Below are positions 5,399 through 49,967 of a stretch of DNA of 58,610 nucleotides, in pieces. Each line of letters starts with the position of its first letter. Within the stretch, counting starts at the first letter, position 1. The DNA is from a virus. Lineage: Duplodnaviria > Caudoviricetes. Under the pieces are notes generated by a model. That model was not told where the DNA came from. It made no database searches and worked only from the letters and a program-made list of their open reading frames with translations. The stretch spans positions 1-58,610 of the IMG/VR virus record IMGVR_UViG_3300031716_000009. One strand, 5' to 3'. Both the position numbers and the translations under genes were made by a program.

Positions 5399-6355
5399 AT
5401 GCCGGCTTCCCAAGCCCGAACTGAAACTCGCCTCCCTCGCGCCGTGATGCGCATCGCTGCCGACGTCCAATCGCGCATCGACGCTCGCAACGCCGCCCGA
5501 ACCGGGGACGTCGATCCCGAAATCCCGCCCGCGCCGACCCCGGTCGCCGCGAGCCCTGCAGAGACACCGCCCGCGCCGACGCCGCCAGCAGACCCTCGCG
5601 AAAGCGATCCGGGCTACTGGAAGCAGCGGTTCAACGTCACCGAAGGGATGCTGCGCCGCGAGCGCACCGACCACCAGGCGGCGATCCGGACGCTGAATCA
5701 GCAGGTTGCCGAATTGCAAGAGTCCAATCGGACGCTGCAAGCCAGCAAACCCGCTGCACCGATCGAACTGTCCGCGTTCTTCACGCCCGATCAGATCGAG
5801 AAGTACGGCGAGGAGCAGTGCCAGGTGATGGCGAACGCGGCGCAAGCCGCAGCGGCCAAGCAGGTCAAGGAACTGCAGGCGGACTTCGATGCGCGGCTCA
5901 AGCCGATCGCCGAAGCCCGCAAGCAAGACCAGGCCGAGGCTGCCGCCGCCGCCACGCGCGAGTTCGAGGACAAGCTCACCGAGCTGGTCCCGACCTGGCG
6001 CGATGTCGATACCGACCAGCACTGGCTCGCATGGCTCGCGCAGCTGGACGATGCGACCGAGGTACCGCGCCAGGAGATCCTGAACCGGCACGTGGCGTAC
6101 AAGAACGTCGCGGCCGTGGGCAAGATGTTCCAGACGTTCCTGAAGCTTCGCACCCCGCCGGCGCCCCCGATGACGCCGCACGGGGGCGCCGCCAGCACGC
6201 CGACGCCTCCCGCGCCGACGCCGCCGGCTGACGCCGCAGGTGTGCCCTCGGACGCCGAGGTCAGGGACTTCTTCAAGCGGGCCGCAATTGGCAAGATCAA
6301 GGACGACGAGCGCGTCAAGTTCGAAGCTCGGATGAAGCTCCGCGGCGGCCGCTAG
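5399..6355 (+). CDS. Capsid scaffolding protein
   Basis: Coiled-coil, Pro-rich linkers, immediately upstream of the major capsid gene. Confidence 0.75.
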   Translation: MPASQARTETRLPRAVMRIAADVQSRIDARNAARTGDVDPEIPPAPTPVAASPAETPPAPTPPADPRESDPGYWKQRFNVTEGMLRRERTDHQAAIRTLNQQVAELQESNRTLQASKPAAPIELSAFFTPDQIEKYGEEQCQVMANAAQAAAAKQVKELQADFDARLKPIAEARKQDQAEAAAAATREFEDKLTELVPTWRDVDTDQHWLAWLAQLDDATEVPRQEILNRHVAYKNVAAVGKMFQTFLKLRTPPAPPMTPHGGAASTPTPPAPTPPADAAGVPSDAEVRDFFKRAAIGKIKDDERVKFEARMKLRGGR

Positions 6356-6393
6356 AGGCCGCCACCACTTTGCAGCTTCACTAGGAGAGCGTC

Positions 6394-33246: not shown

Positions 33247-35529
33247 TCAATCGTCCTTCCTGTAGCGATAGGTCTCGAACCCTGCCGCGGCGAGCGGCAA
33301 GCCGTCGTTCCAGTCCAGTGGACTCACCATGATCTCAGCGAGACGTTGCGAGCTGAAACGGTCATCGTCAGGCGTCTCGCACACCCATTCGTCATGGACA
33401 TCAAATCCACCGATGTCCAGGTAACCCTCGGCGTCCAGCATGGGCAGCACCTCCATGAACTGGTCACACGCTGCGGCCTGGACAACGTTCTCGAAGATCT
33501 TGCCGCCGTAGGTGCGGACTTCCCCCCAAGCTCTCGAATACTGGTTTTGCCCTGTGTAGGCGATGCTGCCGTCCTTGGTCAGGTGGATGCCGGGGTAGCA
33601 CAGCGCGCGGCCCGATGGCAGGCCGATGCGCAGCCACGAGCCATCGCGGCGGATCTTGAGCTTGCGCGCACGGAACGTGACGCCCAGGTTGGCGATGGCC
33701 TCGCGGATCGTCTCTTCCAGCTCGGGCCAGTAGCTCGAGATGCGCGGGTGCGCGGCGCGCCACAGGCGCTTGAGCGAATCGCAAACCACGAACACCTTTT
33801 CGGACAGGCCGAACCGGGCCTTGACCTTGGCGGTCTCGCGCGAGGCCTCGATCGTGGCCAGCCGCTGAGCGTCGCCCGCGGCCTTGCGCGCCATCATGTC
33901 GTGCTTCTCGTCGACCAGGCTGTACTGCCAGTCCAGGAAGCCGCGCGCGGCCTCCAGCACCTCGGGGTCGATCGTGTCGTGCACGGCGTCGGCCATGGCC
34001 ACCAGGTCGATGCCGTAGGTCGCGGCTCCCGTGATCCAGGCACCGACACCGCCGCCGTACTGGAACATCAGCTCCTCGACCTTACCGATCTGGCGCTGCA
34101 GGTAGTACTCGTGCGGGTCGTCGGAGAGCCGGTCGACGTTGAACGAGGCCATGTAGGCGCGCACGTACAGGTCCAGGCCCTTGCGCTTGGGCTTGCCCTT
34201 TTTGTCGACCTCGCCCGGGATGATCGTGTCGAAGTCGCGAAAGGCCTGGATCTTCCAGTCCTCGCCGGCCAGCCACGCGGCCATGCGGCCCTCGATGTTG
34301 GACAGGTCGGCGATGCACAGCTTGTTGCCTTCGCTCGCCACGATCACGCCGCGCACCGAGGACGCGAGCATCTCCATCTCGTTTTCGACCACGAGATCGA
34401 GGCACCCGGCCTTGATCGCCGCGATGCCCTGCTCGATGAACTTCCACGAGTAAGCCGGCCGCGGCATATTGCCGTACTGCATGGCGCGGTGGCCGGTGCG
34501 GCCGGTGCGGCCCGCGCCGCGGAACTGCGAGCCGCCGCGGAACCGTCCGTCGGCGCTGACGATGCGCAGCGCGGTCTTGTACTTGGTGGCCGAGTTCATC
34601 GACGCGCGCAGGCGGATGCGCAGCAGCTCCTTGACCGTGTCGGGCAGCTCAGGATCCTCGAGCCGGCGCTCCAGGGTGTCGGCTCGCATGTCGGGCAGCT
34701 CTACGCCGTGGGACTCGAGGATCCACTTGAGCAGCAGGTCGCGCTGGGTCGTCGAGCCCACGCCGCCGTCGGTCAGTTCCACGGTGCGCTTGGCCATGTC
34801 GCGCTTTGCCTTGTCCGCGGCCTCGATGGCCTTGGCCGCGAGCTCCTGGTCGATGCGCACGCCGCCGTAGTTCATCTTCAGGTGCAGGTGCCACAGCTCG
34901 ACCTGCTTGCCGGTTTTGTAGTTCCAGGTCGGCATCTTGCGGTGCGCCGCGCGCATCGTGGTGATGTCGCGCGCCGCGTAGACGATGAAGCGCTGCCACT
35001 CAGCCGGGTGCGACTTCTTGTCGTTGTAGGTGCCGTCGGCCTTGGGAATGCAGAACAGGCGGATCAGCTTCTTGCCCTCGTCGAGCTTGCGGTCGCCGTC
35101 GACCAGCTTCAGGATCTCGCCGAGCTTGTCCAGTGCGCCAGGCAGCGAGTGCGCATAGGCCTGGACCATCGTGTCGCGGCGGCGGTGCATCGGAATTGAC
35201 TGGCCGACAACGGGCAGCGTCTTGTCGATGACGACGAAGTCGAACATGCCGCCGTTGTGGAACCAGACCAGGCACTCGTCATCGTTGATGAAGTGACACA
35301 GGTGCCCCGGCATGGCTTGGTGGTTCAACGGAACCTCGACCCACGAGTCGGAGAGCTCGTCCAGGTAGTTGTCGGTACGGTTGAGCCTGTCCCAGACTCG
35401 CGGCTCGCCCTCGTCGCCTGCGTAGGCCCAAAGCATGATCTCGGCTTTCTCGGCGTAGGCATGCGAGCCGTTGGTGATCGGCACCGGGGACCGGGTCTCC
35501 AGGTCGTGGAACGAGTTGCGTTCGGTCAT
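33247..35529 (-). CDS. polA: Family A DNA polymerase with 3'-5' exonuclease
   Basis: Exo DLET / HN..FD / Y...D; motif A ADLSNIEGR, motif B RQIGKVEELMFQYG, motif C VHDE. Confidence 0.93.
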   Translation of the reverse strand: MTERNSFHDLETRSPVPITNGSHAYAEKAEIMLWAYAGDEGEPRVWDRLNRTDNYLDELSDSWVEVPLNHQAMPGHLCHFINDDECLVWFHNGGMFDFVVIDKTLPVVGQSIPMHRRRDTMVQAYAHSLPGALDKLGEILKLVDGDRKLDEGKKLIRLFCIPKADGTYNDKKSHPAEWQRFIVYAARDITTMRAAHRKMPTWNYKTGKQVELWHLHLKMNYGGVRIDQELAAKAIEAADKAKRDMAKRTVELTDGGVGSTTQRDLLLKWILESHGVELPDMRADTLERRLEDPELPDTVKELLRIRLRASMNSATKYKTALRIVSADGRFRGGSQFRGAGRTGRTGHRAMQYGNMPRPAYSWKFIEQGIAAIKAGCLDLVVENEMEMLASSVRGVIVASEGNKLCIADLSNIEGRMAAWLAGEDWKIQAFRDFDTIIPGEVDKKGKPKRKGLDLYVRAYMASFNVDRLSDDPHEYYLQRQIGKVEELMFQYGGGVGAWITGAATYGIDLVAMADAVHDTIDPEVLEAARGFLDWQYSLVDEKHDMMARKAAGDAQRLATIEASRETAKVKARFGLSEKVFVVCDSLKRLWRAAHPRISSYWPELEETIREAIANLGVTFRARKLKIRRDGSWLRIGLPSGRALCYPGIHLTKDGSIAYTGQNQYSRAWGEVRTYGGKIFENVVQAAACDQFMEVLPMLDAEGYLDIGGFDVHDEWVCETPDDDRFSSQRLAEIMVSPLDWNDGLPLAAAGFETYRYRKDD

Positions 35530-35783
35530 GCCGGAGTGACCTCGTCGGTCGCCGTGTTGACGACGTACAGCGGAGCATCGCGACCCGAGTCGTAAAACGT
35601 GACGATGTGGCGCAGCTTGCGTAGCCGGCTGCAATCAGCGAACCAGTCAGGCATGTCGAGCGCCTTGGTTACTGCCTTGTCGGCCGCGTCCATCTCGGGC
35701 AGATGGTGCATCTCCGAACGAGGCCACAGGCTCACGTAGAGCTTCGCGTACTCACGCAGCACTGGATAGAGCTTGTCGTTCAT
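35526..35783 (-). CDS. Hypothetical protein (85 aa)
   Basis: ATGA overlaps on both sides. Confidence 0.6.
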   Translation of the reverse strand: MNDKLYPVLREYAKLYVSLWPRSEMHHLPEMDAADKAVTKALDMPDWFADCSRLRKLRHIVTFYDSGRDAPLYVVNTATDEVTPA

Positions 35784-35989
35784 TTCAGCCACCCGTCCTC
35801 GAAAGCCTTGGCCGCGAGCTCCGCGCACTGCGCAGCCACCGTGTAATGCTCCGCGCGCTGCGGCTCGCAGTCGGCGGCCAGCAGGCGCAGGCCCTCGGCC
35901 GATGTCTGCAGCTCCTGCAGCACGCGGCGGTCGCGCCAGTAGCGCTGGTGCGCCACGCGCTCGGTGTGCCTGTCGGGGATACGTCTCAC
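35780..35989 (-). CDS. Hypothetical protein (69 aa)
   Basis: Overlapping start/stop with neighbours. Confidence 0.55.
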   Translation of the reverse strand: MRRIPDRHTERVAHQRYWRDRRVLQELQTSAEGLRLLAADCEPQRAEHYTVAAQCAELAAKAFEDGWLK

Positions 35990-36465
35990 AGCAGCCCCGG
36001 GTTCGCAATCCAGCTGGTGTTGTCGCGAGGTGGCGCCAGCGTCTTGATCAGCTCGGGGATCGACGTCACGATCTTGTCGGCCTCCAGATACATCAGCTCA
36101 GGCGTGTCCAGCAGTTGCCACAGGATGATCGTGCGCTTGCCCTTGCCGCACGCCCATCCGAGTTCCAGGTGCGCCGACTTGCCGCACGGCAGGACCATGA
36201 CGAACGTGTCGGCCCACTCCATCGCGCCGTGGTCAGCCGCGAAGCCTTCCTTGGCGCGTGGGTGCTCGAGCGCCGTGATCAGTTCCTCGGCTTTGACGAC
36301 CTGGCGGTTGCCCATGTCGAGCGCGACCTGTTCCCAGCCGAACCCGGCCTTGTTCGGCGGGTTGCGGAAGTCGTAGACCTGGTGACCGTGCTGACGCAAC
36401 GCGTCGACGACGGCCGGTTGCCACTGGTTGCGCCAGCTGCTGGCGACGTAGATCTTGGCCATCAC
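35986..36465 (-). CDS. Nucleoside 2-deoxyribosyltransferase / N-glycosidase-like protein
   Basis: KIYVASSWRN, D...M.WAD, PCGKSAHLELGWA. Confidence 0.7.
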   Translation of the reverse strand: MMAKIYVASSWRNQWQPAVVDALRQHGHQVYDFRNPPNKAGFGWEQVALDMGNRQVVKAEELITALEHPRAKEGFAADHGAMEWADTFVMVLPCGKSAHLELGWACGKGKRTIILWQLLDTPELMYLEADKIVTSIPELIKTLAPPRDNTSWIANPGLL

Positions 36466-36653
36466 ACGCCCCTGCCGTTGGCTTTGCAGGCGGCCAAGAA
36501 CGTACGCACGGCGCCCTCATAGACGTGGCGGCACGCCGGGTAGTCGTCATCGACGACGGCCGGCAAGTTGCGGTACGCCTTCACGAGCGCGTTGAGCGCG
36601 TCGAACTCATCGCTCTGCGGCTTCATGCGCGCAAGGAAGTCATCGATGTCCAT
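36462..36653 (-). CDS. Hypothetical protein (63 aa)
   Basis: SD GAAAGGA; VVDDDYP motif. Confidence 0.6.
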   Translation of the reverse strand: MDIDDFLARMKPQSDEFDALNALVKAYRNLPAVVDDDYPACRHVYEGAVRTFLAACKANGRGV

Positions 36654-36690
36654 AGCGTTTCCTTTCGAGTAAAGACTCTTCACAATTCAA

Positions 36691-36793
36691 AGGTGGGAGG
36701 CGGCCGGAATCGAACCGGCCTTCGGGGCATGGGATGCCTACCCCGCTTTCGCGTCTCGGACTTCCCCGGGCCGACCACCGGCCCACGCCTCCC
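36691..36793 (-). ncRNA. tRNA-like RNA (8/5 acceptor/T, 6-bp D arm) with no canonical anticodon arm
   Basis: GGGAGGCG/CGCCTCCC-A-CCT; D arm GGGCCG-GTGGT-CGGCCC; T arm GCCGG-TTCGATT-CCGGC; intergenic. Confidence 0.7.
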
Positions 36794-36802
36794 TGGTGGA
36801 AC

Positions 36803-37429
36803 TCAGTCCAGGTCGTCGGCCTCGATGCCTTCGGCGACTTCCTCGAAGCCGTCGGCCGACGGCGCCGCGCCGCCGCCGAACGCATCGCCGGCGCGCGAGC
36901 GCTGGATCACCTGCAGGGTGGCGCGCACGCCCTTGCCGTTCTTGTTGTCCTGCGCCCAGATCTCGACCTTGGCGTTGACGTAGCAGCCGCCGTAGATGCG
37001 GCCGCCCTTGCCCGGCATGAGCTCGTTGTCGGCCGCGTAGACCGGCGACTTGTCGTTGTCCATGACGATCGGGCGGCCCTTGTCGGCGTAGCGGTAGGCC
37101 GTCAGCGCCATGTTGCCTTCGTACCCGTCGTAGGGCTTCTTGTCGCCGTTGACCCAGCAGGTGGCCTTCTTGTCGGCCAGGATCTCGTCGATCAGGTCAT
37201 CGAGCACCTGCTGTGCCGACTTCTTGGCGGTGGCCTTGCACTTCGAAGCGAACTTCTCGGTAAGCACCGCGCGGATCAGCTTGTCGACGGCCTTGTGCTG
37301 CTCGGAGTCCTGCGGCACGAGCAGCGTGGCGCCCCAGCGCGGCGCCGCGTCGGGGTTGTCCTGGTAGCGCTTGGGCTCACCCAGGTCGGGAAAGGACAGT
37401 CGCACGTCCTTGAGGATGATTTCAGCCAT
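36803..37429 (-). CDS. ssb: Single-stranded DNA-binding protein (DUF2815-like)
   Basis: VRLSFP.L, IYGGCYVNA...W.Q.N..GKG, GDAFGGG, acidic tail ADDLD. Confidence 0.88.
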   Translation of the reverse strand: MAEIILKDVRLSFPDLGEPKRYQDNPDAAPRWGATLLVPQDSEQHKAVDKLIRAVLTEKFASKCKATAKKSAQQVLDDLIDEILADKKATCWVNGDKKPYDGYEGNMALTAYRYADKGRPIVMDNDKSPVYAADNELMPGKGGRIYGGCYVNAKVEIWAQDNKNGKGVRATLQVIQRSRAGDAFGGGAAPSADGFEEVAEGIEADDLD

Positions 37430-37501
37430 GGTTTGGTGGTTCTCAGGTTAGGTGGTTGGAAGGTTGTCAGGCTGCGCGAGGGCCCGGGTAGCGCGGGGAA
37501 A

Positions 37502-37876
37502 TCAGATGTTGGAGAACAGGTCCGCAGCGACGCGATCATCGGCCAGTCGCGTGCGCAGCTCGTAGCCCATGAGCGGCCAGATCTTGGCCACGGCGGCCTG
37601 GCGCGCGATGCGCCTGCCGATCTCGGCGTCGAAGTTTTCGGGCGCGGCGCACGCGGACTCGCCGGTGACGGTGAAGCCGTTGCGCAGCACGAGGACGCAG
37701 AAGGTGAGCAGCTTCAGCGCCTGCGGCATTTTGGCGTCGGTCATCTCCGGATCGGCCATATCGACGCCCTGCGCCGCAGTGAAGTAGTGCTCGCTGATGA
37801 TGTTGGCCTCGATGTCGGCCGGCGTGATGCGCGGGCCGCGGTTCGGGATCTCGGCGTCGGTGACGGGTTGGTTCAT
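37502..37876 (-). CDS. Phage Gp49-family protein (N4 gp49 / Sf6 gp66 type)
   Basis: TFCVLVLRNGFTVTGESAC..PENFDAEIG..IAR......IWPLMGY. Confidence 0.8.
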   Translation of the reverse strand: MNQPVTDAEIPNRGPRITPADIEANIISEHYFTAAQGVDMADPEMTDAKMPQALKLLTFCVLVLRNGFTVTGESACAAPENFDAEIGRRIARQAAVAKIWPLMGYELRTRLADDRVAADLFSNI

Positions 37877-37889
37877 GGTTCTCTCCTGG

Positions 37890-38714
37890 TCAGTCGAGCG
37901 AATCGTCGCCCGGGGTTGCGGTGAATCCTTCGTCTGAGAGCAGCGGCGGCACCCAGCGCGTCTTGATCTGCGACTCGGGCATCACACTCGGCTTGGGGTC
38001 GTCGCGCACGACGCGCTCGCTCAGCTTGGCCCACTGCACGGGGCCGATGACCGGGTCCTTGCCCTTGGTGAGCTTCTCGATCTGGGTGGGCGAACGCAGC
38101 TTGAACGAGTAGACGTCCTCGATCTTGAGCCGCATCGTCTTGCGCAGGTAGTGCTCGATGGCCTCCTCGTCCGTCCACTTGCGGTTGCCCTGGCGGCCCA
38201 GCCCCAGGCCGTAGCCGGGGATCTCGCGGCCGGCCATGAGGTTGCGCTCGGTCTCGGCTCGCACGGCCTTGCACCAGGCTTCCATGAGCGGCACGATCTT
38301 CATGGCCGTGGCCAGCTTGACCGGCGGCAGCAGGGCTGGGTCGGGCGCCATCTCGTCGTCGGCCACGACATCGAAGTCGCACTCCGAAGCCTTTTGCAGG
38401 TTGCCCTGCACGCTCGGGCACGTGGGCATCGCGCGGCAGAACGCGCACTCCTCGTCGTTGGGCTTGGGATTCAGGTACTTCTGCGACCAGATCGCCAGCG
38501 GGATCGTGTTGTAGGCCTTCTCGGCGTCGACCGTGCGGCCAGCGTTGATCTCCAGCAGCTCGGCGAAGTCGCGCAGGTCATCGAGCGAGCACGTCCACTC
38601 GGTCGTGCCCGCGACCTTGGGCTGGTGGATCACGAGGCGGATCTGCGTGAGGCCCTGATCCCGGGCCCACGCGAACACGCGCTCGCGGTATTCAGCCGGC
38701 GAGATCGTCGTCAT
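37890..38714 (-). CDS. C-terminal half of split Cas4-like DUF2800 exonuclease
   Basis: IRLVIHQPK, CAFCRAMPTCP, PGY.L..GR..NRKW, L.SPTQ.EKL; own SD AAAGGA. Confidence 0.8.
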   Translation of the reverse strand: MTTISPAEYRERVFAWARDQGLTQIRLVIHQPKVAGTTEWTCSLDDLRDFAELLEINAGRTVDAEKAYNTIPLAIWSQKYLNPKPNDEECAFCRAMPTCPSVQGNLQKASECDFDVVADDEMAPDPALLPPVKLATAMKIVPLMEAWCKAVRAETERNLMAGREIPGYGLGLGRQGNRKWTDEEAIEHYLRKTMRLKIEDVYSFKLRSPTQIEKLTKGKDPVIGPVQWAKLSERVVRDDPKPSVMPESQIKTRWVPPLLSDEGFTATPGDDSLD

Positions 38715-38922
38715 CGTCGGTTCCTTTCTGTAGTAGGGCGTTGGGGATGGTCTGGACTTCCTTGATCGCATCGTGGTTGAGCGATCGGGCGATGTCCTGG
38801 CGGCCCAGCATGACCAGGTTATCGCACGCGCGCCTGACGATGGCCTGGTAGACAGCAATCGCGCGGCGCGAGACGTTCAGCTGCGCCTGCAGGTCGGCGA
38901 TGCGGTCAGCCGGCGAGGTCAT
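38692..38922 (-). CDS. 76-aa ORF between the DUF2800 halves, ending DDDDDLAG
   Basis: SD GGGAGG plus ATG within the tail of the upstream gene. Confidence 0.65.
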   Translation of the reverse strand: MTSPADRIADLQAQLNVSRRAIAVYQAIVRRACDNLVMLGRQDIARSLNHDAIKEVQTIPNALLQKGTDDDDDLAG

Positions 38923-39526
38923 CGTCGTCCTCCCAGCTCGCTGCGTCCAGCACCTCTCCGCACTCACGCAGCGCCTTGATCGTCTGCGCCTTGACCGTCT
39001 GCGCGCGCTCGTACATGTCGCCCAGCGCCCCGAGCGCGTAGGTCAGGGCCTGCGAGTTGCGCTCGACGGAGACCGGCTTGTGGCCGGTCTTGAGGTCGCC
39101 CACGATCAGCTCGCCCTGCTCGCGCGCCACGATGATGAAGTCGGCCGTGCCGAACTGGTCGGGCAAGTCGACGAACTTGGAGAACTCGACGCGTTGCTCG
39201 ACGTGCAGCTCGCGACCGGCGGCCACGTGGCGCACCATGTCGACGTACTCCTGCACCAGATCGGCCATGTCCTCGGTGATCTGCACCTTGCGCACCGGCT
39301 CGTCGCCGTGGCTGACCACGACCCACTCGCCGATGAAGTCGGCCGCGGCCTTGTCGCCGGTGAGCACGCGCGCGGCGATGTCATGCATCGCGGTGCCGTC
39401 GTCGCTGTACTCGTTGGACTTGTTCGGGAACGGCGCTTCGAGGGTCAGCGAGCCGGGGCACGCGAACCAGCGCTTGGAACCGCTGGGGGACAGCCGCGCG
39501 TGCGCGGCGGGGGTTTTTTCAGTCAT
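38906..39526 (-). CDS. N-terminal half of split Cas4-like DUF2800 exonuclease
   Basis: HARLSPS...RW..CPGS, GT..H, VEQRV, GTAD, DLKTG, N.Q...YALGA; ends EDDDDLAG. Confidence 0.85.
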   Translation of the reverse strand: MTEKTPAAHARLSPSGSKRWFACPGSLTLEAPFPNKSNEYSDDGTAMHDIAARVLTGDKAAADFIGEWVVVSHGDEPVRKVQITEDMADLVQEYVDMVRHVAAGRELHVEQRVEFSKFVDLPDQFGTADFIIVAREQGELIVGDLKTGHKPVSVERNSQALTYALGALGDMYERAQTVKAQTIKALRECGEVLDAASWEDDDDLAG

Positions 39527-39710
39527 TCGGGTTCTCCTCGTCTTCATCGATGGCGCGGCACAGGCGCCGAAGCGCTTCGGCCAGCGACATGCAGTTGATC
39601 TGGTCTTCGATGAACTCGTCACCGCGCCTCGACTCCTTCGCGCGCTCGTAGTAGCAGTGCTTGTCGAACTCGGCCTCGATCCGCGCCACGAAACGTTGGT
39701 AGGTGTTCAT
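39519..39710 (-). CDS. Hypothetical protein (63 aa)
   Basis: SD GGAGG; acidic C-terminus. Confidence 0.55.
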   Translation of the reverse strand: MNTYQRFVARIEAEFDKHCYYERAKESRRGDEFIEDQINCMSLAEALRRLCRAIDEDEENPND

Positions 39711-39871
39711 GGGGTTAGCCCTCCGCACTCAGGATGTCGCGTAACCGGCCGCAGGCGGCCAGAAACTTGATCAGATGGAACGTCTCGGTCTGCGTGAACA
39801 CGATCGGCTCGTGCCGTGATCTTGGCCGCGCCGGTGCCGATGGCCGGCTGGTAGTTCTCAGTTCGGGTCAC
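39707..39871 (-). CDS. Hypothetical 54-aa protein (not in ORF track)
   Basis: GTGA and ATGA overlaps fill the gap exactly. Confidence 0.4.
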   Translation of the reverse strand: MTRTENYQPAIGTGAAKITARADRVHADRDVPSDQVSGRLRPVTRHPECGGLTP

Positions 39872-40383
39872 GCCGCGACCTTGTCCTTGGGCCAGCCAGC
39901 CTTGATGAAGTCGGCGACCACGTTGGCCACGACCGGCAGGGTGCGGATCGCGGCGGCCTCGTCGGGCGGCAGGTACTTGACGAACTCAGGCAGCGCATCG
40001 GCGAGTGCCTTGCGCGTGGTGACGCTGTAGGCCACGCTACGCAACTTGGTTTCGAGCGTCTTGCGCTGCTCGGCCTGCGACGCCTCGACAGCGCACAGAT
40101 CCTTGAGCGCGCCATCAGCCTTGACCGCCTCCTTGTGCGTCTCGCGGGCGTCGTATGCTTCGGGCGTGGGAATCATCACGCTGCGCGAGCCGACGAAGAC
40201 GCTGCTCGTGTTCAGCCACCGACGCTGCTCGGGGTCGGCCCACAGTTTGCGGACGGCCGGGGGCGCCAGAGCCAAGGCTATCTTGAGCGTGAGTGCGCGG
40301 ATGCGCTCGTCGTAGTCGATCTGCGGGACGTCGTTCATCACGCGACGGATGAACGCGTCGCGCATGTAGTTGGTCAGCTTCAT
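39868..40383 (-). CDS. Nmad5-like (nucleotide-modification-associated domain 5) protein
   Basis: MKLT...RDAF...VM.DVP..DY, TT.K.L...LPEF.KYLP, AGWPK; recognised from memory. Confidence 0.6.
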   Translation of the reverse strand: MKLTNYMRDAFIRRVMNDVPQIDYDERIRALTLKIALALAPPAVRKLWADPEQRRWLNTSSVFVGSRSVMIPTPEAYDARETHKEAVKADGALKDLCAVEASQAEQRKTLETKLRSVAYSVTTRKALADALPEFVKYLPPDEAAAIRTLPVVANVVADFIKAGWPKDKVAA

Positions 40384-40425
40384 GATTCGTTTTCTCCTGT
40401 AGCGGGGCTCGCGCCCCGCGGTTGG

Positions 40426-40956
40426 TCAGTCCAGCGCCGTGTCGTCGCCGATGATCTTGCCCAGCAGCGCGGCCAGGTCGGCGTAGTTCTCGGGCGGCAC
40501 CGACGAGCCCTTGGTCTTGCCCTCGTCGTTGACGCCGCCGGCGCCGCGGATGGCCGCGATGGTGGCGTCCTTGTCCTTGAGCTGCGCCTTGGCGATCAGC
40601 TCGGACAGGCCCGACTCGGCGTAGGTGGGCAGCGTAGTCGTGCTGCTGGCGACGATCGCGTCGGCCGTGGCCTGCGTGGGCGTCTTGGTCTCGGCCTTGG
40701 GTTCCTTGGTCTCGGGCTTGGGTTCCTTGGTCTCGGGCTTGGGTTCCTTGGGCGGCTTGGGATCCTTGACCGGCTTGCCCGTGGCGCCGGCCGCCGTGCC
40801 CTGGGCCACGCTGTCGCGCGCGGCCTGCTGGGCTTCCGGTGACAGCGTGGTGGCGATGCCGGGCGCCGTCGCACCGCTGCGCGCCGGCTCGGTGACGCAG
40901 GCAAAGAACTGCGCCGCCTCGGCGATGCTCGTGAAATTGATCTTGACTTCGATCAT
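40426..40956 (-). CDS. Hypothetical protein with KEPKPET tandem repeats
   Basis: Three 21-bp repeats near 40686-40750; typical gene upstream of DUF2800; ends DDTALD. Confidence 0.7.
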   Translation of the reverse strand: MIEVKINFTSIAEAAQFFACVTEPARSGATAPGIATTLSPEAQQAARDSVAQGTAAGATGKPVKDPKPPKEPKPETKEPKPETKEPKAETKTPTQATADAIVASSTTTLPTYAESGLSELIAKAQLKDKDATIAAIRGAGGVNDEGKTKGSSVPPENYADLAALLGKIIGDDTALD

Positions 40957-40982
40957 GGGGTCTCTTTCGTGGTTGGGGGAAA

Positions 40983-41042
40983 TGGTGGGGGAGGGCGGCT
41001 CTCACCTGTTCGCCGCCTGTTTCGTCCGGACGCGGCTCCCCC
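40983..41042 (-). ncRNA. 60-nt mini tRNA-like element ending in ACCA
   Basis: GGGGGAG/CTCCCCC-ACCA; hairpin CGT-CCGG-ACG; 6-bp GGCGGC/GCCGCC arm stacked on the acceptor-like stem. Confidence 0.55.
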
Positions 41043-41051
41043 GTTGAGGGG

Positions 41052-41237
41052 TCAGTCGTTGAGGATCTTGTTGATCCGGTTGCAGAAATCAGTCTCGACT
41101 CGGGTGAGCATCTCACGATGCCGCGCCTTGTCGATCTCGCCCCACGCCAAGCGCTGCGACAGCTTCTTTTTCTTGACGTGGATCGTCTTGGCGGCGTAGG
41201 CGATCTGGCGCGCCTGTTCGATCGTGACGACGGTCAC
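41052..41237 (-). CDS. Hypothetical protein (61 aa)
   Basis: GTGA overlap. Confidence 0.55.
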   Translation of the reverse strand: MTVVTIEQARQIAYAAKTIHVKKKKLSQRLAWGEIDKARHREMLTRVETDFCNRINKILND

Positions 41238-41593
41238 GATTGCCTCAGCTCGAAGTCAAGCCGTTGGATCTTGGCGATGCACACGCGCCGCTGCTCGTAC
41301 AGATGCTCGAGGAAATCTTGATGGGCGGCGTGCAGCATGAAGTCATGGTCGAACAGCGCTTCTTCGATCTGCTCGCGCGTCTCGAAGATCGTGCGATCGA
41401 TCATCGACAGATGGCGGCGGTGGCCCCACAGTTTGATGCGCCTGAAGCCGCGTGTCACGTTCAGGTGGTTGTAGGCGAACATGCCCAGGACGACCAGCAG
41501 CGCCAAGCCGATCCAGGGGTTGCCTATGGCAAAGCACGCCACGATCAGGATCAGCGCGAAGGCGATGAGCGAAGCGAAAGCGGTGGTCTCCAT
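41234..41593 (-). CDS. Membrane protein, first gene of the leftward operon
   Basis: SD GAGGAGG; two TM segments. Confidence 0.7.
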   Translation of the reverse strand: METTAFASLIAFALILIVACFAIGNPWIGLALLVVLGMFAYNHLNVTRGFRRIKLWGHRRHLSMIDRTIFETREQIEEALFDHDFMLHAAHQDFLEHLYEQRRVCIAKIQRLDFELRQS

Positions 41594-41632
41594 GATGTCC
41601 TCCTCAAAGGATTTCGTTGCGGTGTGGGGATG

Positions 41633-41663
41633 AATGTACCACCTGGTACCGCGACCGTGTCAA
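41633..41663 (-). promoter_or_regulatory. Leftward promoter TTGACA-19-TACATT (extended -10) overlapped by operator GTACCA-CC-TGGTAC
   Basis: Read directly; upstream A/T tract. Confidence 0.7.
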
Positions 41664-41678
41664 GCACTTTTTTACGTG

Positions 41679-41713
41679 AAAAATTGCGGGATCAGCGTTT
41701 CCACTGATCCCGC
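41679..41713 (-). terminator. Intrinsic terminator
   Basis: GCGGGATCAGTG-GAAA-CGCTGATCCCGC followed by AATTTTT on the minus strand. Confidence 0.7.
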
Positions 41714-41778
41714 GAGAAGCCCTACTCGCGTGCTCGTTGGGTCAGCGCCTCATGCCTGGCGCCTGGCGAGCAGGGGAG
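41679..41778 (-). ncRNA. Candidate ~100-nt small RNA or attenuator leader
   Basis: Own promoter TTGATA-17-TAGGAT, several stems, terminator at the 3' end, only a 3-codon ORF; 5' end estimated. Confidence 0.55.
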
Positions 41779-41783
41779 CCTCG

Positions 41784-41822
41784 ATCCTACGCCTTGCGGT
41801 GTTAGTTATCAAGTGGTACATT
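41784..41822. promoter_or_regulatory. Overlapping divergent promoters: leftward TTGATA-17-TAGGAT, rightward TTGCGG-17-TACATT, with degenerate operator TTATCA-AG-TGGTAC
   Basis: Read directly; rightward -10 lies 8 nt before ATG 41831 (leaderless). Confidence 0.65.
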
Positions 41823-41830
41823 GCGGCCTC

Positions 41831-42058
41831 ATGAAACATCTTGCCGACCTCACACCCGACCAACTGCGCGCCGTCGCCGTCAAGATCCCCACGTCCGTGC
41901 GCTACCTGCAGCACATCGTCGCGGGCCGGCGCACGCCGTCCGTGGACATGGCCGTGGCCATCGAGAACGCGACTCGCGGGGCCGTGCCTCGCGAGTCGTT
42001 CGCCTCGCTGCCGTGCGCGCGGTGCAAGTACCTCAAGTCCTGCAAAGGAGGAAAGTAG
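41831..42058 (+). CDS. Cro-like HTH regulator
   Basis: TSVRYLQHI..GRR.PS..MA..IE..T.GAV.R, C-terminal CxxC. Confidence 0.8.
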   Translation: MKHLADLTPDQLRAVAVKIPTSVRYLQHIVAGRRTPSVDMAVAIENATRGAVPRESFASLPCARCKYLKSCKGGK

Positions 42059-42059
42059 C

Positions 42060-42257
42060 ATGCCGCAATTCAAGGTGCACGCCGAGAACCAAGTCTATCG
42101 AGGCGGCGTCTTCAAGGCGAAATGCCTCACCGGTCAGGATGCGCGTCGCTTGGTCTACCTGCTCAATCAGGGCCTGCAGGTCGAGGCCGAGATCAAGGCG
42201 AAACGCAAGGCGCGCAAAGCGCATCTGGCTCAACCCCGGCTGTATGCCGACGACTAG
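42060..42257 (+). CDS. Hypothetical basic protein (65 aa)
   Basis: SD AGGAGG. Confidence 0.6.
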   Translation: MPQFKVHAENQVYRGGVFKAKCLTGQDARRLVYLLNQGLQVEAEIKAKRKARKAHLAQPRLYADD

Positions 42258-42269
42258 AAGGAGGAAACC

Positions 42270-42437
42270 GTGATCATCGATTTCTCATGGCTGCGTCGCA
42301 GCCTGCGGCGCCCGCGCCGCTTCCCCGAGCCGTGCGAAGACGCTTACCGGGCCGGCTGGTCCTGGGGCGTGATCTGCGGCTTGTGCCCCGGGCTGCTCGG
42401 GGTGATGATCGTCGTGCTGTGGAGGGTCGGATCGTGA
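42270..42437 (+). CDS. Small membrane protein (55 aa, not in ORF track)
   Basis: SD AAGGAGG + GTG; C-terminal TM; GTGA overlap. Confidence 0.55.
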   Translation: MIIDFSWLRRSLRRPRRFPEPCEDAYRAGWSWGVICGLCPGLLGVMIVVLWRVGS

Positions 42438-42985
42438 GCGACAACATCGAACTGCCGCCGCTGCCTGCCACCCATCTTCGCTTCGAGGTCTCTGTCACGC
42501 CGCGAGGAGAGCGGTTGGACTACACCGCGGAGGATATGAAGGCCTACGCCCGCGCCGCCATCCTCGCCGACCGCGCCCGCCAGGCTCCTGCCCCGGTCGA
42601 AGTGTCGAGGCTGAAAGACGAGCTGCAACAGAAGATCGAAAAGTACGTTGACGATTGCATCGCCGATGCGGCAACACACCGACCCTACACCGGCAACGCG
42701 TGGGCAGAATGCACCGCCACCATCGACCGCCTCGCTGCTGCGGCATCCACCCCGGTGGGTGAAGTGCCGGCCGGGCACGACCTCGACATCGCGGCGCAAG
42801 GCGTGCAATCGCTGCTGGACTCACTGATGCCCAGCTTCGAGTACGTCGGCGTCTCGCTGCGTGTCAGCGCCGAAGATCACGCCGCGATCCGGTCTGCGAT
42901 GGCTGGCGCGCGCACGTCGCTCCAATTGATCCGCAACGCCATCGCCGCTTCTGCCCGCGCTCAGTCTTCATCTAAGGGCTCTTGA
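42434..42985 (+). CDS. Hypothetical protein
   Basis: ELPPLP...YTAEDM.AYARAA motif common in phage accessory genes. Confidence 0.6.
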   Translation: MSDNIELPPLPATHLRFEVSVTPRGERLDYTAEDMKAYARAAILADRARQAPAPVEVSRLKDELQQKIEKYVDDCIADAATHRPYTGNAWAECTATIDRLAAAASTPVGEVPAGHDLDIAAQGVQSLLDSLMPSFEYVGVSLRVSAEDHAAIRSAMAGARTSLQLIRNAIAASARAQSSSKGS

Positions 42986-43419
42986 AAATGCCCCGCGGTG
43001 ACAACTTCCGCCAGCACTCCTCGGTCTATGCCAAGCTGGTGGCCAACGTGACCGAGGACGGCGACTGCTGGCTGGGCACCGAGCGCGAGCGCGCGAGCTA
43101 CGGCTACGTGCGCACGTCCCTGCGCATCGGGCACCGCCAGGTCAAGGTCATGGCCCACATCCTCATGTACTGCATCGTGCAGCTGCGCAAGGAGCTGGAG
43201 CTGCACGAGCCCACGAACGTGGAGCTCTACGCCGCGTACCTGGAGTTCCGAGAGTCGGGGCTGGAGATCGACCACAAGTGCAACAACCCGGCCTGTCGTT
43301 TTCCCGATCACCTGCAACCGGTCACTCGGTTGGAGAATGAGAAGCTCAAGCACGAGCGGCGACTTGCGCTGCCCGTGCCTGAGAACATCGAACACGATCC
43401 TGCTGAACTCATGTTCTGA
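42982..43419 (+). CDS. HNH endonuclease
   Basis: DCWL, YG, AH..MY, IDHKCNNPAC..PDHL..VT..EN. Confidence 0.8.
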   Translation: MKMPRGDNFRQHSSVYAKLVANVTEDGDCWLGTERERASYGYVRTSLRIGHRQVKVMAHILMYCIVQLRKELELHEPTNVELYAAYLEFRESGLEIDHKCNNPACRFPDHLQPVTRLENEKLKHERRLALPVPENIEHDPAELMF

Positions 43420-49867: not shown

Positions 49868-49967
49868 GGTGAGATTTCCTTCGTGGGTTGGTGACTGGTG
49901 AGACTTGATTGTCAGGACTGCGGGAGAGGCAGTCCAATTGCATTTGGCAATCGGACTGAGTCAGTGG

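Follow-up and report, generated by a model that had tools for sequence, protein, structure and literature searches.

Intercistronic hairpins are a common means by which phages and bacteria set the relative stability of the different parts of an operon mRNA. The REP hairpins of malEFG and the hairpins of the puf operon are stem-loops of this kind, which determine segmental stability within their polycistronic operons. In phage T7, hairpins between the early cistrons are cut by RNase III into stable segments, and this enzyme requires about 20 bp of near-continuous double-stranded RNA, roughly two helical turns. Bacterial RNase P cleaves hairpin-like substrates that have no T-loop, among which 4.5S RNA, the C4 RNAs of P1 and P7, the CI RNA of P4 and the M3 RNA of phi80 are described, together with a hairpin of the hisCD mRNA as a proposed substrate (PMC5499578, PMC10731613). 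In the same accounts, the RCC of the RCCA end pairs with L15 (PMC5499578, PMC10731613). Finally, the PeSLs of T4-type phages are cassettes made up of a promoter and a stem-loop that lie at shuffled early genes and mediate their shuffling (PMC2839356).

The element that interests us here is a branched hairpin located in a gap of a phage early operon. As in the intercistronic stem-loops, it is GC-rich, it lies on the sense strand of an untranslated gap and it lacks a U-tract; unlike them, it is branched, comes from a phage, has a unique sequence and precedes a C/A-rich leader. It shares with the RNase III sites of T7 a position between the cistrons of a host-transcribed early operon, but its stack measures 13 bp and contains a junction, and only one of the hairpins discussed below (e1 of the relative G001, whose arms add to a closing stem of 14 bp) has the length that this enzyme requires. 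The hairpin substrates of RNase P are described as discrete small RNAs or as a known mRNA site, whereas the element occupies an intercistronic gap. With PeSLs it has in common that the stem-loops border early genes which are small and variable, and that close relatives have gained, lost or replaced genes at these borders; yet a PeSL, as portrayed in PMC2839356 and PMC4122927, joins a strong sigma-70 promoter to a terminator stem-loop and is repeated in sequence, and in the present case the scan finds neither a promoter nor a U-tract, nor do the hairpins repeat one another in sequence. The explanation favored here, with a probability of about 0.5, is that this hairpin acts in cis, between cistrons of the mRNA, and determines the stability or the processing of the message.

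Position and fold of the element

The window, that is, the whole stretch of 58,610 bp that was analyzed, is the complete virus record of a soil phage, with direct terminal repeats and a GC content of about 66%. Its early/replication operon runs leftwards on the minus strand from about 41.6 kb. It starts with a 119-aa and a 61-aa gene, which are followed by the hairpin, a 176-aa PKE-rich protein, an Nmad5-domain protein, a DUF2800/PD-(D/E)XK nuclease in two ORFs, a gp49/66-family protein and an Enc34-type SSB; a tRNA-Sec-like element, a 73-aa ORF and a deoxyribosyltransferase-like protein come after the SSB. The features of the region are the following:

41813-42058: small divergent gene with a weak HTH_3 match (20.5 bits, below the Pfam cut-off of 23)
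41594-41812: divergent regulatory region, upstream of the 119-aa gene
41234..41593, minus strand: 119-aa gene with a hydrophobic N-terminus, first in the leftward early operon (ORF analysis)
41052..41237, minus strand: upstream gene, 61 aa, basic, no family match, GC3 0.89, with a 73% identical homologue in the metagenome contig L017
41043..41051, minus strand: 9-nt spacer from the stop codon of the 61-aa gene to the hairpin (sequence)
40983..41042, minus strand: 60-nt branched hairpin with ACCA tail (sequence; fold of -28 kcal/mol, z-score -2.01)
41036..41042, minus strand: 5' strand of the closing stem, GGGGGAG, 7 bp with 40993-40987 (fold)
41026..41035, minus strand: mini-hairpin CCG/CGUC/CGG, 3 bp (fold)
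41025-41018, minus strand: 8-nt linker 3' of the mini-hairpin (fold)
40994..41017, minus strand: arm GGCGGC/GCCGCC, 6 bp, with the 12-nt loop GAACAGGUGAGA (fold and sequence reading)
40987..40993, minus strand: 3' strand of the closing stem, CUCCCCC (fold)
40983..40986, minus strand: single-stranded ACCA, running on into the C/A-rich leader (sequence and fold)
40957..40982, minus strand: leader of 26 nt, rich in C and A and poor in G (UUUCCCCCAACCACGAAAGAGACCCC), with a weak Shine-Dalgarno sequence, up to the ATG of the 176-aa gene (sequence)
40426..40956, minus strand: downstream gene, 176 aa, PKE-rich repeats, no family match, with homologues in G001, L017 and L018

An exact sequence check places the element on the minus strand from 41042 to 40983. 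It folds into a three-way junction composed of the 7-bp closing stem, the mini-hairpin and the 6-bp arm, followed by the single-stranded ACCA. The minimum-energy structure of the 60 nt (-28 kcal/mol) is identical to the centroid, has an ensemble frequency of 0.53 and agrees with the fold put forward in the sequence-only reading of this DNA. The 6-bp arm continues into the 3' strand of the closing stem with zero linker, which gives a stack of 7+6 = 13 bp, and on the 5' side the helix is broken by an 18-nt insert. Direct reading reveals no T-loop motif in the 12 nt of the arm loop. The ACCA is unpaired in the fold and the bases at -1 and -2 do not pair with the tail; the base at -1 to G41042 is a C and that at +1 is a G. 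The sequence 3' of the hairpin reads ACCAUUUCCCCC. There are no G-U pairs in the window's hairpin, so its pairing does not directly indicate the strand.

The gap that holds the element is 95 nt long and both genes that flank it have a high GC3. About 600 nt, with the first two small genes of the operon, separate the element from the early promoter region upstream. The genome has little intergenic space, and several of its other gaps carry hairpins as well. One of them, at 40384-40425, has a 7-bp stem with a GCGA loop and a z-score of -3.3, and a Shine-Dalgarno sequence follows it. In the late region, a simple 7-bp hairpin surrounds a stop codon at 6344-6363 and is followed by ACCAC-UUU; in its G001 orthologue the ACCAC is kept and a stem G-C pair has become G-U. 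Within the regulatory region at 41594-41812, the terminator scan detects a canonical hairpin with a T-run at 41713-41686, and the host-type terminators of this phage therefore do carry U-tracts. A promoter-like site, TTGACA...TACATT, with a GGTACC/GGTACA palindrome, can also be seen by eye in that region.

Relatives and their analogous hairpins

The relative G001, a phage of 59,786 bp that also has direct terminal repeats, shows synteny with the window, with amino-acid identities of 45-94%. In this phage a 199-aa gene replaces the 61-aa gene and is flanked by two branched hairpins, here called e1 and e2. The metagenome contig L018 has the same two hairpins on either side of the 199-aa gene, and an extra small ORF after e2. 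Their positions are:

G001, L013 8006-8092: e1, 14-bp closing stem and two inner hairpins
G001, L013 8720-8771: e2, 5-bp closing stem, 14-nt 5' bulge and 6-bp arm
L018, 1979-2062: e1
L018, 2687-2738: e2

The arm of e2 in G001 has a 7-nt loop and abuts the 3' strand. The closest relative at the junction itself is L017, whose 61-aa and 176-aa proteins are respectively 73% and 52% identical to those of the window. There, the junction consists of the stop codon, 2 nt and the start codon, and it holds no hairpin. A 3020-nt contig of another relative (X3, from a public DNA metagenome run) has 100 other bases in place of 40983-41273, a replacement that covers both the hairpin and the 61-aa gene; homology resumes at 40982, directly after the ACCA, and the leader at 40957..40982 is kept although the hairpin is not there. 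The stem plus ACCA is not conserved in these two relatives.

No homologue of the element was detected by blastn or with covariance models of the relatives' hairpins. An exact search with 31 nt of the element produced 0 matches in the viral contig collection, and neither did the 176-aa, 61-aa and nuclease proteins used as anchors find anything there. In the same collection, the Nmad5 gene led to 6 loci, none of them with upstream synteny, the SSB alignment to G001 and 2 distant loci only, and the 119-aa gene to G001. The 176-aa and 199-aa alignments retrieved no relative from the genome contig collection, and the element and the e1 of G001 had only chance matches in coding regions (E>=0.4) among 50,697 phage records searched with blastn. 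The lineage is rare in the searched collections. Within the window, the 25 nt of tail and leader occur a single time at up to 3 mismatches.

The e1 and e2 covariance models recover their own copies at 78-110 bits. The e1 model (R1), run on 19 sources with 238,142 bases, has no match in the window; it finds the 2 copies on which it was trained, one of these also in antisense, and the locus L026 at 13.5 bits (E 3.7). The e2 model (R2) returns its training copies and weak noise only from the 19 sources with default filters, and with filters off it gives 29 noise matches at 35000-43000 (E 0.93-9.4), none of them on the element. A joint model of the four asymmetric hairpins was dropped after MAFFT yielded a structurally inconsistent alignment. 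Since both models miss the element at E<=10, the window's hairpin should be regarded as an analogue of e1 and e2 and not as a demonstrable homologue; judging by the sequences compared, it is itself unconserved. Pair-preserving change was examined in the analogues, since the window's hairpin has no homologue with which to compare it.

In the two copies of e1, all 53 of the 53 pair cells of the 28 pairs stay paired. In 4 pairs one partner has changed and in 1 pair both have (C-G to U-A), while the first inner hairpin has a rewritten loop. Controls in which the partners were slid by 1-3 columns retain 30-49% pairing; the comparison involves n=2 sequences and the shuffle control was uninformative (243/500). 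Several e1 pairs are G-U and would be mismatched on the opposite strand, which points to a structure formed by the sense-strand RNA, not by DNA or antisense RNA.

In every analogue, R-CC follows the closing stem of the minimum-energy fold. The tails are GCCA in e1 and e2 of L018 and in e2 of G001, ACC-U in e1 of G001 and ACC-C in L026; according to the fold, the GCCA is partly paired in e1 of G001. The analogues differ in stacked length (about 11, 13, 17 and >20 bp). R-CC(A) comes right after several closing stems, namely in the window, in e1 and e2 of L018, in e2 of G001 and in the late-gene hairpin at 6344-6363 with its G001 orthologue, and this recurrence may suggest a more specific role than that of a passive barrier. 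In G001 and L018, the hairpins lie at cassette junctions, with R-CC(A) tails and C/A-rich leaders. The element belongs to a pattern of this phage group: where exchangeable gene cassettes of this operon meet, related genomes have branched hairpins that are not homologous and that come with a C-rich leader.

A scan of the viral contigs for the leader motif gave 27 loci. On reading them, a GC-rich hairpin directly upstream of the motif and a start codon downstream were found in L021, L026 (= L028), L030 and L041 (= e1 of G001). L036 and L044 have the upstream hairpin, and no clear start codon was seen in them at the usual distance; the remaining loci appear to be chance hits. When the 73 window ORFs were compared with 10 loci by tblastn (E<1e-4), only L017 and L018 matched. 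No proteins are shared with the window in six motif loci (L021, L026, L028, L030, L036 and L044), and these therefore show a common layout, not homology.

Chance expectation and likeness to tRNA

With a z-score of -2.01, the fold of the element is equalled by 4 of 200 shuffles, and the z-score drops to -0.69 for the whole gap (98 nt) and to -0.43 in 141 nt of context. Its architecture was described as a closing stem of at least 7 bp, an inner hairpin of at least 6 bp and zero 3' linker, and the window was scanned against 60 dinucleotide shuffles. The window has 13 such places, one of which, the element, carries an NCCA tail; the shuffles average 8.1 places, and in 7 of the 60 an NCCA tail follows at least one of them. 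Looser limits produce 87 places in the window, 4 of them with NCCA, and stems of at least 7 bp within 85 nt that are followed by RCCA number 48 in the window and 48 in G001. In the last 40 nt of leaders, CCA occupies 29 of 675 positions (0.043), twice its genome-wide frequency (0.020), and the gap at 37430-37501 is rich in CCA and ACC without any hairpin. The element exceeds chance only weakly. Its distinction is its place in a sense-strand intergenic gap, not the hairpin-ACCA pattern, and the ACCA is most simply seen as the start of the C/A-rich leader.

The sequence-only reading took the element for one of two anticodon-less tRNA mimics in the operon. Its likeness to tRNAs, tRNA-like RNAs and tmRNA (Rfam CL00001) consists of the 7-bp stem, the discriminator A and the CCA, as well as an arm that adjoins the 3' strand in the fashion of a T-arm. 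The acceptor-like part is indeed there, GGGGGAG/CUCCCCC followed by an unpaired A-CCA, with the same pattern in 7 of 60 shuffles. On the other hand, the element has no covariance-model match, T-loop, D-arm or anticodon arm. The T-loop motif is UUCRANY in a 7-nt loop on a 5-bp T-stem, and the arm of the element has 6 bp and a 12-nt loop. ARAGORN predicts 0 tRNA or tmRNA genes in the window and cmscan gives 0 Rfam matches at gathering thresholds; at E<=10, the 221 nt from 40900 to 41120 have 2 weak unrelated matches, none of them to the element on its own strand. The mimicry of tRNA is thus not convincing for this hairpin.

The other element, at 36793-36695, is more tRNA-like. It reaches 34.6 bits against tRNA-Sec (gathering threshold 47) and has an acceptor stem, a 6-bp D-stem, a long variable arm and the T-arm GGUUCGAUUCC, without a proper anticodon stem. 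The 13 bp attributed to both elements are correct (7+6 here, 8+5 there). It is also true that the two bracket the nuclease-ssb block, since the Nmad5 gene, the split DUF2800 nuclease, the gp49/66 gene and the Enc34-type SSB lie between them. Nevertheless, the idea that they form a system is unsupported because they do not co-occur in the relatives: in G001, which lacks the 36.7-kb element, the SSB gene is directly followed by the next gene, and L017 lacks the hairpin (co-occurrence was judged on G001 and L017, as L018 could be followed only to a point short of the SSB). Nothing speaks in favor of the decoy role suggested for them, through binding of EF-Tu or a synthetase. The proposal that the early transcript is segmented fares better, in part: the element is a structure on the sense strand and lies in a gap of the early operon that is not translated, which makes a role in segmenting or processing plausible.

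Explanations of the hairpin

Several scenarios may explain the presence of this hairpin. The preferred one, an intercistronic mRNA hairpin that affects stability or processing, is in line with what was found at the locus: the hairpin is stable, it lies on the sense strand in an untranslated stretch between two genes of one operon, and a divergent regulatory region precedes it. GC-rich hairpins with a Shine-Dalgarno sequence behind them also occur in further gaps of the operon and of the genome, the analogous e1 hairpin has undergone pair-preserving substitutions, and the terminator scan, which calls the site at 41713-41686, calls nothing at the element, which is not a standard terminator. In this scenario, the element would be transcribed within the polycistronic early-left mRNA, where the folded block would stop 3'-to-5' exonucleases and protect the upstream segment. 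After an endonucleolytic cut, the hairpin could cap the 5' end of the downstream segment, and it may also keep the adjoining ribosome-binding leader unpaired. The net result would be to uncouple the expression and decay of the flanking cistrons. Against this reading stand the z-score of just -2 and the fact that the hairpin could be a neutral by-product of recombination, since the arrangement of L017 works without it. In the only RNA run found (X2; contigs only), contigs that derive from relatives cover parts of 40401-40809, including part of the 176-aa gene, and of 41320-41574 at a depth of 0.06-9.9, with zero cover over the element. A further run, X1, may come from the source sample of the window, and X1, X2 and X3 reveal neither transcription nor RNA ends. 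The element is a real but ordinary feature. As found, it matters little, being unique in sequence and dispensable in a sibling phage.

Among the alternatives, cleavage by RNase P is doubtful. The closing stem and the A-CCA would mimic an acceptor end, and a cut between C41043 and G41042 would segment the early transcript. The sequence-only reading had pointed out that RNase P cleaves hairpin-type phage RNAs such as C4 and CI, and the literature agrees (PMC5499578, PMC10731613). In those sources, hairpins lacking a T-loop are cleaved by the bacterial enzyme, and the element resembles the substrates described (4.5S, C4, CI, M3, hisCD) in its G-rich stem, in the unpaired RCC(A/C) after the 3' strand and in having no equivalent of a T-loop. 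Its helix ends in an unpaired 3' RCC(A) that is free of the 5' leader, as such a substrate should: the 7-bp G-rich stem starts with G and precedes a discriminator A and an unpaired CCA, with -1 and -2 free of the tail. The R-CC tails of the analogues, the ACCA after the 7-bp hairpin at 6344-6363 and in its G001 orthologue, and the presence of a strongly tRNA-like element in the same operon are also in its favor. Yet chance often puts RCCA behind a stem of at least 7 bp (48 cases per genome), and CCA is enriched in all leaders of the phage. The stacked length, from about 11 to >20 bp, keeps no acceptor/T-stem ruler, and part of the GCCA is paired in e1 of G001. The 18-nt 5' insert sets the element apart from the described substrates, as does the absence of a match to the tRNA clan or any other Rfam family; its base at -1 is a C, where U is preferred (with G, which it does have, at +1; PMC10731613), and L017 does without the hairpin. 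The element is at most a candidate site.

A broader version of this idea is unlikely but would be of more general interest. A GC-rich hairpin with an unpaired RCCA(C) behind it, and then a stretch rich in U and C, would be a recurrent punctuation mark in this soil phage group, resembling a tRNA 3' end and cut by the tRNA-processing enzymes of the host. RNase P would cut on the 5' side, RNase E and exonucleases would trim the 3' side back to the CCA, and both early and late polycistronic mRNAs would be carved into stable segments, with the tRNA-Sec-like element at 36.7 kb as the full-blown version of the device. Because of their place at the borders of cassettes, each incoming gene would bring a processing signal of its own. 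The hairpin-RCCA arrangement occurs at two loci in the window phage and at up to three in G001. If it were read by the host's tRNA-processing machinery, mRNA punctuation by RNase P would become a modular, cassette-borne device and would extend beyond a few E. coli operons and small phage RNAs.

It is quite unlikely that the hairpin is a functionless junction scar or a chance structure that arrived with the recombination that joined the cassettes. Its absence from L017, its replacement in the X3 relative, the lack of a homologue anywhere searched, the modest z-score and the reproduction of its pattern by shuffles would all fit such a neutral origin. Nevertheless, intergenic space is scarce and other gaps hold hairpins too, the analogous hairpins of the relatives show pair-preserving change, and the minimum-energy fold, at a frequency of 0.53, dominates the ensemble.

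A regulatory site early in the operon, either an attenuator or pause site or the nut- or put-like target of an antitermination or regulatory protein, has a still lower probability. The element lies some 600 nt after the early promoter region and two small genes, a basic 61-aa protein is encoded just upstream, and the element would be a branched RNA, as are some RNA-based antitermination elements. But there is no U-tract, the C-rich RNA before the next start, of only about 30 nt, would be short for a Rho loading site, L017 has the 61-aa gene and not the hairpin, and there is no Rfam match; the terminator call at 41713-41686 lies elsewhere.

Finally, it is very unlikely that the hairpin acts at the DNA level as a PeSL-like recombination module, in which repeated hairpin-plus-leader units would provide short homologies for cassette shuffling. 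The hairpins do edge variable genes (those for the 61-aa and 199-aa proteins and the extra ORF of L018), the homology with X3 resumes exactly after the ACCA, at 40982, and the leader motif recurs at other genes, in keeping with the shuffling attributed to PeSLs (PMC2839356). Yet no sigma-70 promoter is called beside the hairpin, the hairpins are not repeats of one another, and the G-U pairs of the analogues point to RNA instead of DNA. Membership among the PeSL cassettes proper was rejected, with no promoter at the site and a tail and leader that are single-copy at <=3 mismatches. The comparison does provide a clean small example of the gain, loss and replacement of cassettes at hairpin/leader borders in an early operon.

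Other candidates can be dismissed briefly: an intrinsic terminator (the scan of 35000-43000 lists 5 sites, with 5.2 expected by shuffling, none at the element), an RNase III site (7+6 bp with a junction insert), sequestration of the Shine-Dalgarno sequence by the CCACC/UUCC tail (just 3-4 bp possible, and inconsistent), a CsrA site (no GGA in the loops), an N4-type DNA hairpin promoter (no giant virion RNA polymerase, the largest ORF being of 888 aa) and a plus-strand terminator (no T-run). As for the leader, a similar sequence, CAACC(C)ACGAA(A)GGA, is present in the gap at 49868-49967 and in relatives.

A tRNA-Sec-like element downstream of the SSB gene

The gap downstream of the SSB gene contains a second structured element of the leftward strand.

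36695-36793 (-), tRNA-Sec-like element

The score of this element with the tRNA-Sec model is 34.6 bits, below the gathering threshold of 47, and ARAGORN makes no call for it. It combines an acceptor stem of 8 bp, a T-stem of 5 bp with the T-loop GGUUCGAUUCC and a 6-bp D-stem whose loop is UGGU. Its variable arm is long; the anticodon region spans 21 nt and lacks a canonical stem. The encoded 3' tail is made up of ACC only, the next base being U. In a blastn search against phage records the sole matches of the element were tRNA T-arms (E ~0.3). Both the element and the 73-aa open reading frame that follows it are absent from G001, the syntenic 59,786-bp phage relative.

Hairpins and leaders in other gaps

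Simpler hairpins are found in two other places, and both have counterparts in G001.

40384-40425 (-), hairpin in the next operon gap (G001: L013 9295-9333, in early-operon locus coordinates)
6344-6363 (+), 7-bp GC hairpin (G001: 41072-41055, -)

The first, GCGGGGC-GCGA-GCCCCGC, has 7 bp and a z-score of -3.3, and is followed by a Shine-Dalgarno sequence, without a CCA tail; G001 retains a similar hairpin with a different loop. The second holds the stop codon of a 318-aa gene inside its loop and is followed on its 3' side by ACCAC-UU and then by the leader of a 310-aa gene; G001 keeps this hairpin, with G-U in place of one G-C pair. Several genes of the window are preceded by the motif CAACC(C)ACGAA(A)GGA or, more generally, by leaders that are rich in C/A and poor in G, as in the following gaps.

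49868-49967 (-), gap with recurring leader
37430-37501 (-), gap with recurring leader

Unrelated viral contigs of high GC content (loci L021, L026 and L030) also have such leaders, located there 3' of GC-rich hairpins.

Gene exchange and a split nuclease

The following genes bear on the comparison of gene content with G001 and on possible base modification.

39868-40383 (-), Nmad5-domain gene
35986-36465, deoxyribosyltransferase-like gene
37890-38858 and 38906-39622 (-), DUF2800/PD-(D/E)XK nuclease in two open reading frames (Pfam profile)

The Nmad5-domain gene was not detected in G001 by tblastx, and the matching interval is occupied by an unrelated 154-aa open reading frame (L013 9334-9798). 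This difference between the window and G001 is a further cassette exchange within the same operon. Together, the Nmad5-domain and deoxyribosyltransferase-like genes hint at DNA base modification. The two nuclease open reading frames cover positions 1-163 and 171-365 of the profile and are separated by 47 nt. G001 shows the same split and has one additional open reading frame of 79 aa there (L013 9814-10476, 10454-10693 and 10668-11504). The split could be natural, or could result from a frameshift or an insertion.

The divergent regulatory region

41594-41812, divergent regulatory region
42982-43419 (+), HNH / His-Me finger endonuclease gene, adjoining this region

The regulatory region carries a canonical terminator-like hairpin followed by a T-run (41713-41686, -), and a scan called a TTGATA/TAGGAT promoter at 41812-41784. 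By eye, a promoter-like TTGACA...TACATT overlapping the palindrome GGTACC/GGTACA can also be recognized, and is conserved in G001. The adjoining endonuclease has a homologue with 84% identity in L018, a metagenome contig of a related phage.
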